Assembly: GCF_003334255.1 (NCBI RefSeq)
Contig: NZ_QOWU01000164.1
Length of the DNA stretch: 1,323 nt
Strand: one strand, 5' to 3'
From: Escherichia coli
GTDB taxonomy: Bacteria; Pseudomonadota; Gammaproteobacteria; Enterobacterales; Enterobacteriaceae
Position 1 is the first letter of the stretch. Every line of letters begins with the position of its first letter. The notes below the pieces were generated by a model, which was not told where the DNA came from, searched no databases, and saw only the letters and a list, made by a program, of their open reading frames with translations. Positions 1,223 to 1,323 of the stretch are shown in pieces. The position numbers and the translations under genes were made by a program.

Positions 1223-1323
1223 ATGCTAAAACAGCAGGATATGACAGAAACCGCCAGAGTGGTGTTTAATGAATTAAGTGCCACCGAACCGGCGACAGTC
1301 GGGGAGATTGCGCAGAATACTTA
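1223..1323 (+). CDS. Hypothetical protein, 3'-truncated by the window edge (first about 33 codons: MLKQQDMTETARVVFNELSATEPATVGEIAQNT); possible winged-helix/HTH-like N-terminus; first gene downstream of the Q-controlled terminator
   Basis: ATG at 1223 is preceded by a purine-rich Shine-Dalgarno sequence (AAGGGA 1210-1215) with a 7-nt spacer. The frame stays open to the end of the window. The visible N-terminus is hydrophilic and acidic with no transmembrane or signal-peptide character, so it is not a holin or lipoprotein start. It is absent from the ORF track only because it has no in-window stop. Confidence 0.55.
   Translation, partial: MLKQQDMTETARVVFNELSATEPATVGEIAQNT

Follow-up and report, generated by a model that had tools for sequence, protein, structure and literature searches.

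What is encoded by the gene that begins at position 1223 of this 1,323-nucleotide stretch of Escherichia coli DNA (contig NZ_QOWU01000164.1; the whole stretch is called the window below), where it is the first coding sequence behind a terminator controlled by the late-gene antiterminator Q? A sequence-only reading of the window had placed there a soluble, acidic protein of undescribed function in the cargo slot of a phage late operon. We extended the window by way of NZ_AP022815.1 (locus L001 below, in which the window is 12001-13323), and the answer is as follows: the gene encodes a 65-amino acid (aa) stand-alone winged-helix protein, here called wH, which is almost always followed directly by a DNA methylase of the M.EcoGII family, with an invariant motif on the 5' side of its gene and a structured RNA leader between the two genes. 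The gene, the predicted fold of its product, the adjacency to the methylase, the identity of that methylase, the leader and the motif are established directly here; from them we infer that wH binds nucleic acid and controls the methylase cassette, and to this reading, whose binding, target and regulation are all deduced, we give a probability of about 40%.

Is the open reading frame (ORF) a real gene, and does it start where it had been read? It begins with ATG 1223, its translation over 1223-1321 is MLKQQDMTETARVVFNELSATEPATVGEIAQNT, and it stays open to the end of the window, exactly as the sequence-only reading had it. The window is 99.7% identical to prophages of four complete E. coli genomes, and in L001 the full product is the 65-aa RefSeq protein WP_000917749.1, a 'hypothetical protein' (MLKQQDMTETARVVFNELSVTDPATVGEIAQNTYLSRERCQLILTQLVMAGLADYQFGCYRRLPQ). 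An A/G-rich block is conserved at the position of its Shine-Dalgarno (SD) sequence. The 97 distinct alleles have a median pairwise dN/dS (nonsynonymous to synonymous substitution ratio) of 0.32, and by this measure of its sequence the gene is translated and under purifying selection. An alternative in-frame ATG at 1100 would give a 106-aa product, which is annotated in some records (in some of them as a 'lipoprotein'). That ATG directly abuts the T-run of the terminator and has no SD, and the N-terminal extension that it would add is not conserved across homologues, whereas the N-terminus MLKQQDMTE that follows from ATG 1223 is conserved even among homologues of 42-50% identity; ATG 1223 is therefore the true start. 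It is accordingly very improbable that the 106-aa frame is the real product, open and annotated though it is, or that the ORF is a decaying remnant, against which stand the dN/dS value and a confident predicted fold.

Database searches place the protein in a family and say little about its function. It matches PHROG_331 (unknown function) over its full length (residues 1-64, E=2.8e-37). Pfam gave only sub-significant winged-helix matches (TrmB, DprA_WH, MarR_2 and HTH_24), the best of which, TrmB (PF01978, i-Evalue 0.0046, 17.2 bits), the family name that RefSeq uses, is no better than those to other winged helix-turn-helix families. The 65-aa sequence has no match in NCBIfam, its sole match among the PADLOC defence hidden Markov models is at chance level (SWIM_XIII, E=0.0058, 13 bits), and every match in a sequence-profile search of the PDB has E>0.09. 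The downstream extension that had been called for thus yields a complete ORF that belongs to PHROG_331 and, at a significant level, to none of the families in Pfam, NCBIfam or PADLOC, and in these searches it matched no characterised late protein. The PHROG_331-type family is narrow (61 representative clusters among 1.84 billion proteins), and its named members are all from Enterobacterales or their phages.

An AlphaFold2 model of wH, built on a 15-sequence alignment, is a canonical winged helix (predicted local distance difference test score, pLDDT, 92.8). Its topology, H1-b1-H2-turn-H3-b2-b3 with a beta-hairpin wing (H1 at residues 9-16, H2 at 26-33, H3 at 37-49 and the wing at 53-62), is that of the winged helix-turn-helix fold; the MLKQQDMTE tail is modelled with low confidence. 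The segment TVGEIA, which had been taken for the start of a helix-turn-helix or winged helix, indeed lies in H2, the first helix of the helix-turn-helix. Homologues with as little as 42% identity all share M1, T8, L44, T45, Q46 and G51, and nearly all share C40 and A50; since most of these residues are in H3, the recognition helix is the most constrained part of the protein. The exposed face of H3 is unusually hydrophobic (L42, I43, V48, M49). There is no long hydrophobic segment, the longest apolar run being part of the amphipathic helix 3. This and the soluble model bear out the claim that the gene is not that of a holin, and a class II holin gene lies ~5.9 kb downstream. Of the description 'soluble and acidic', the first word agrees with the model; the second holds for the 33 visible aa (isoelectric point, pI, 4.25) and fails for the whole protein, which is near neutral (7 D+E, 6 K+R, pI 5.1, grand average of hydropathicity -0.17). 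All four differences between the window and L001 fall within 15 nucleotides (nt; window 1279-1293, L001 13279-13293) and turn SVTDP into SATEP in the H1-H2 loop; this patch looks like a local hypervariable or recombined stretch.

The identity of wH becomes interpretable mainly through its neighbour, which lies beyond the end of the window. The next protein gene in L001 encodes a methyltransferase that is identical to M.EcoGII (reference sequence from Table S1 of the SUPREM paper) in 330 of 349 residues (95%), has the beta-class motif order DPPY ... FxGxG with DPPY near the N-terminus, and matches PADLOC MTase_II with E=3e-164. It is a member of the M.EcoGII family, and non-specific activity is predicted for this allele. 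The searched parts of PMC5778455 and PMC7544214 describe M.EcoGII as a non-specific adenine methylase from a cryptic prophage of O104:H4 that acts on A in any context in DNA and RNA, is unexpressed in the lysogen and is deleterious when expressed constitutively, and their authors suggest that it is switched on only at induction; neither an upstream gene nor a leader RNA is mentioned in those parts, and 'upstream' has 0 matches in PMC5778455.

How constant is this arrangement? Every annotated case examined, namely the E. coli JE86 prophage and eight phages (phiP27, SfV, mEp460, 1720a-02, Hafnia yong2, Morganella IME1369_02, Providencia PSTRCR_117lys and Citrobacter phiNP), has the order Q, wH, a 140-150 bp spacer and a ~350-aa methylase, whatever the type of Q. 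Among 57 phage records that contain the wH gene the methylase is directly 3' of it in at least 55; the exceptions are PhiR5_1 and phiSTEC1575-Stx2k, the latter with an apparent truncated methylase remnant (judged without alignment). Because it is almost always directly upstream of the methylase, wH is probably a regulator or helper of that enzyme. A methylase-centred survey took one genome from each species and covered 80 loci in about 25 genera of Enterobacterales; of the 77 informative loci about 52 have wH as the gene immediately before the methylase, and in the others that place is taken by varying genes. Thus wH nearly always occurs with the methylase and the methylase often occurs without wH, which makes wH an optional accessory of the methylase cassette. 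Types of wH and of methylase have been recombined and their adjacency persists, so the units recombine yet stay together.

Some details of these loci may be recorded here. At two methylase loci without wH (L103 and L140) the preceding gene encodes a ~80-aa Cys-rich, zinc-ribbon-like protein (CSGC...CPEC...CPAC) that is superficially reminiscent of Mu Com. Loss of the methylase beside wH was seen in contigs of IMG/VR (L068 at about 290-320; L018, L031, L056 and L070; L038, L063, L106 and L108). In one methylase-less copy an IS2 end interrupts the 5' arm of helix P2 of the leader (below), and the remaining ones have common deletion junctions at the same place, with only AAATGGGCGGCTGGTGGGTGT left.

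The second constant element is the motif CTTGCTG-N13-(C/A)AGAGTTAYNTGTRTGT, which precedes the wH gene, unchanged or with a single-base difference, in all distinct loci examined, a range that reaches from Escherichia as far as Xenorhabdus and Proteus. The layout 5' of wH is fixed (terminator, ~25 nt, motif, ~30 nt, SD, ATG), and of 18 methylase loci without wH none has the motif. Because of this fixed spacing and strict co-occurrence with the wH gene, the motif is the likeliest candidate for the binding site of wH; as to its role, it is a candidate operator, atypical promoter or 5'-untranslated region signal. No consensus RNA structure was found in the motif or the 5' region of wH, and no dyad symmetry in CTTGCTG-N13-CAGAGTTA is conserved across lineages. 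A sigma-70 promoter was considered and rejected: the scan did not call one, and the conserved final T is missing from TAYNTG, the best candidate for a -10 element. The 9-mer CAGAGTTAC is found again in SfV-type leaders, 12 nt upstream of the methylase ATG.

Could wH then be a self-contained passenger? It is a unit between terminators with its own invariant upstream motif, it recombines independently of leader and methylase, and it persists after loss of the methylase, in a phage isolate (PhiR5_1) among others. These properties would suit an independent, moron-like regulator with host targets or other phage targets, whose place beside the methylase would come from the shared, recombination-prone cargo slot. 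We consider this doubtful, for wH remains next to the methylase at protein identities of 45-50%, across a range that reaches from Escherichia to Xenorhabdus, Proteus and Morganella, and wH was seen in no other context. Moreover, since the motif is not recognisable as a sigma-70 promoter, independent expression of wH in the lysogen is unsupported.

Is the methylase gene itself regulated after transcription? The spacer between the two genes contains a leader of ~140 nt whose nucleotide conservation exceeds that of both flanking proteins. A covariance model made from 24 copies detects it in 52 of 84 sources. The best structural model has 43 pairs, arranged as a three-way junction (P7[P2, P1']), hairpins P3 and P5, and a pseudoknot, P6, formed between the P1' loop (GGAUC or GGUC) and the GAUCY that directly precedes the methylase AUG. 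Compensatory changes are present in 28 of the 43 pairs, compared with 19.1 +/- 1.8 in shuffles (0 of 500 reach 28) and 9-14 in slid controls. P1' and P7 were outside the model used for fitting the alignment, and plain MAFFT with RNAalifold recovers P2 (nine compensatory pairs) and P7; in Mixta and Tatumella P7 has a G-to-A/C-to-U double change. The many G-U pairs place the leader on the + strand. Two earlier helices, P1 (AUGGG/CUCAU) and P4 (AGGC/GCCU), were replaced by P7 (UGGGC/GCCCA) and P1', which explain the same changes and in addition the double change in the two lineages. Rfam has no family that matches the leader, even at E<=10, and its sequence strings were not found in the searchable literature.

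The leader also contains an ORF, MGGWWVL... (L001 13441-13542, + strand, 33 codons), that was rejected as coding, as its length and frame vary (16, 33 or 45 codons) and nucleotides rather than amino acids are conserved. It starts at an invariant AUG inside P7 and sometimes ends in ATGA at the methylase start. Right after the wH stop there is a second intrinsic-terminator-like hairpin, GCCTTC-CGCAGT-GAAGGC followed by T6 (L001 13407-13434, + strand), and most copies of the leader have such a hairpin with a U-run just 5' of them, with or without wH. A conserved structured leader with a pseudoknot on the bases 5' of the AUG indicates that post-transcriptional control of the methylase has evidently been selected, and the leader is a candidate new cis-regulatory RNA, riboswitch-like or protein-gated. 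That the methylase should lie behind terminators and a leader predicted to occlude its start site fits the toxicity of the enzyme.

Put together, these elements suggest the following scheme. The wH gene is the accessory first gene of a mobile cassette that is made up of a terminator, the invariant motif, wH, usually the second terminator, the ~140-nt leader and the M.EcoGII-type methyltransferase, in that order. The protein would be the earliest product of the Q-dependent late transcript and a sequence-specific, nucleic-acid-binding controller of this cassette. Through its invariant recognition helix (RCQLILTQLVxAGL) it would bind the motif 5' of the wH gene, and perhaps the leader of the methylase as well, and binding would tune the timing and amount of the harmful methylase late in infection.

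Several observations weigh against wH as a controller of the methylase. It is missing from 25 of the 77 informative methylase loci, most of which still have the leader; with about one third of the loci lacking it and the leader mostly kept, wH is not required for methylase expression. Conversely, intact wH genes persist where the methylase is deleted or truncated (L018, L031, L056, L070 and PhiR5_1). The wH alleles of L003 and L004 are 53% identical and their leaders and methylases are identical, so there is no signal of co-evolution. The protein is near neutral, and on the exposed face of helix 3 L42, I43, V48 and M49 take the places at which basic or polar residues are usual in DNA-binding winged helix-turn-helix proteins. 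A dimerisation element is lacking, and the motif is non-palindromic. Finally, the searched literature contains descriptive coding sequence listings of the gene and no functional study or experiment on it.

What would a protein of this kind resemble among known systems? Its closest analogies are the controller (C) proteins of restriction-modification systems and phage Mu Com-Mom, and it is a member of neither family. Like wH, the C proteins (C.PvuII, C.AhdI) are small proteins of the helix-turn-helix class encoded directly upstream of a modification or restriction gene that is harmful if mistimed, with an operator before their own gene (putative in the case of wH). They have an Xre-type five-helix fold, act as dimers on palindromic C-boxes and set the timing of the nuclease gene, whereas wH is a winged helix with a non-palindromic motif, an orphan methylase as its partner and often a terminator between the genes; a Pfam scan of wH gave no HTH_3, Xre or C-protein match. 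Mu Com-Mom likewise has a gene for a ~60-aa protein directly upstream of a toxic late DNA-modification gene, with messenger RNA (mRNA) structure over the start site of the latter, whose translation Com activates when it binds the leader. Com is, however, a zinc-finger RNA-binding protein whose gene overlaps mom, and wH has no Cys4 zinc finger or CxxC (C40 is its sole near-invariant Cys and C59 is variable), is separated from the methylase by a gap of ~150 nt and does not occur at about one methylase locus in three. Factors of the TrmB, MarR and ArsR types have dimerisation or ligand-binding parts, and the 65-aa wH is the winged-helix domain alone.

The observations that weigh against a controller also sustain its rivals, namely the moron-like regulator above and a wH that acts on the enzyme or its product rather than on gene expression. 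As a companion at the protein level it might bind the methylase and modulate its activity, or restrain its methylation of RNA and host DNA, or it might read or coat DNA rich in N6-methyladenine (m6A), for example shielding progeny DNA from m6A-dependent (type IV) nucleases. The hydrophobic surface of helix 3 agrees with this, as do the one-sided dependence (wH is hardly ever found without the methylase) and the MLKQQDMTE tail, which is strongly conserved, modelled with low confidence and could be a docking peptide. Winged-helix domains are also established as m6A readers in nucleases of the DpnI type, which cleave DNA modified by M.EcoGII (PMC11037411); wH has no detectable sequence relation to DpnI. 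The Zalpha signature (an Asn and a Tyr in helix 3 and Pro-Pro-x-Trp in the wing) is absent from wH (RCQLILTQLVMAG and YQFGCYRRL), and wH survives in methylase-less phages; we regard such a companion role as unlikely. A broader proposal, in our judgement speculative and somewhat improbable, is that wH and the pseudoknotted leader form a dedicated, previously undescribed control or companion system for promiscuous adenine methylases of the M.EcoGII type, in which the leader would be a riboswitch-like or protein-gated translational lock on the methylase and wH would either gate that lock or read the hyper-m6A DNA that results (for example for feedback shut-off or for protection from m6A-dependent nucleases).

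The surroundings of the gene are those of a phage late operon (Table 1). As had been read from the sequence, Q, a late-promoter-like site and an intrinsic terminator precede wH, which is the first coding sequence after them, and it does sit in a late-operon cargo slot: between Q and the class II holin gene L001 has seven protein genes (wH, the methyltransferase, TerB, DUF3927, a NanS-p-like esterase, DUF1378 and DUF826) and three tRNA genes in ~5.9 kb, and in phiP27 the same slot additionally holds stx2e. The TerB-family and DUF3927 genes (L001 15092-15684, + strand) fill the place between tRNA Ile-Arg-Arg and the NanS-p-like esterase, which is that of stx in Stx phages. Upstream, the stop of the RusA gene and the start of Q overlap in ATGA at 323-326, and the -35 of the predicted late promoter pR' overlaps the Q stop codon. 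A hairpin and U-run at the position of the presumed terminator tR' is also kept in phages with unrelated Q genes, and 120 nt of untranslated sequence separate it from wH. From pR' and this terminator a short RNA of ~70 nt is predicted (~1029-1099, + strand), which would be made in lysogens and be of the lambda 6S/StxS class. A weak, sub-threshold Rfam match to isrJ/isrK (1028-1099, E about 0.7-1), small RNAs of Salmonella islands, has ends that coincide with those of this predicted RNA.

Table 1. Positions of features in the window and of the leader RNA downstream of it (window coordinates unless a locus is named)
Feature	Position	Strand	Basis or remark
RusA-family Holliday-junction resolvase gene, 3' part	3..326	+	ORF list; RefSeq annotation of the 99.7%-identical locus L001
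Late-gene antiterminator Q, 227 aa	323..1006	+	PHROG_304 'anti-termination protein Q-like', E=2.4e-102; RefSeq annotation
Predicted late promoter pR', TTGCAA-17 nt-TATATT	996..1024	+	consensus scan; inferred from position
Intrinsic terminator, presumed tR', CCCGCC-ACT-GGCGGG + T6, six GC pairs	1079..1099	+	terminator scan
Invariant motif CTTGCTG-N13-(C/A)AGAGTTAYNTGTRTGT	1161..1195	+	upstream of wH gene, all distinct loci examined
Shine-Dalgarno AGGGA of the wH gene	1211..1215	+	direct reading; 8 nt between last G and ATG
First 33 codons of the 65-aa stand-alone winged-helix protein (wH; PHROG_331)	1223..1323	+	frame open to window end; cut inside helix 2
Structured RNA leader of the methylase, ~140 nt	L001 13432-13573 (about 110-250 nt past window 3' end)	+	covariation
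Same leader in L003	4207-4347		also 50 other loci

How common and how well known is the gene? With its downstream spacer it is present in 2281 of 5426 complete E. coli genomes, in up to 8 copies per genome, and the strains that have it include EDL933, E2348/69 and E24377A. The 57 phage records include phiP27 (L23), SfV (orf47), mEp460 (gp52), cdtI and 1720a-02 as well as many Stx2a, Stx2c and Stx2d phages. The usual annotation is "hypothetical" or "TrmB family regulator"; for example, PMC9729726 lists 'a TrmB family transcriptional regulator' beside 'a site-specific DNA methylase' between Q and stx2e, and PMC6266700, which deals with pR' regions, does not discuss the gene or its neighbouring ORFs. 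The suggestion that an undescribed function could sit here must thus be narrowed: the ORF itself is widespread and already catalogued, and it is undescribed in function only.

The wH protein is ordinary-looking and common, and the value of the finding is in its context beyond the window, that is, in the coupling to the methylase, the motif and the leader. If wH should be a plain autoregulator, the outcome would be routine tidying of the annotation of a 'hypothetical protein' that is very common. The enzyme M.EcoGII is in wide use, about 40% of complete E. coli genomes have a member of its family, and the way in which phages silence and then deploy a harmful, sequence-blind methylase is not described in the papers searched; three conserved and unstudied elements, the wH protein, the invariant motif and the covariation-supported leader, are now tied to it. 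The cassette of Stx phages is located between Q and stx, so any effect that it has on late transcription or on the fate of the mRNA could also alter toxin output.
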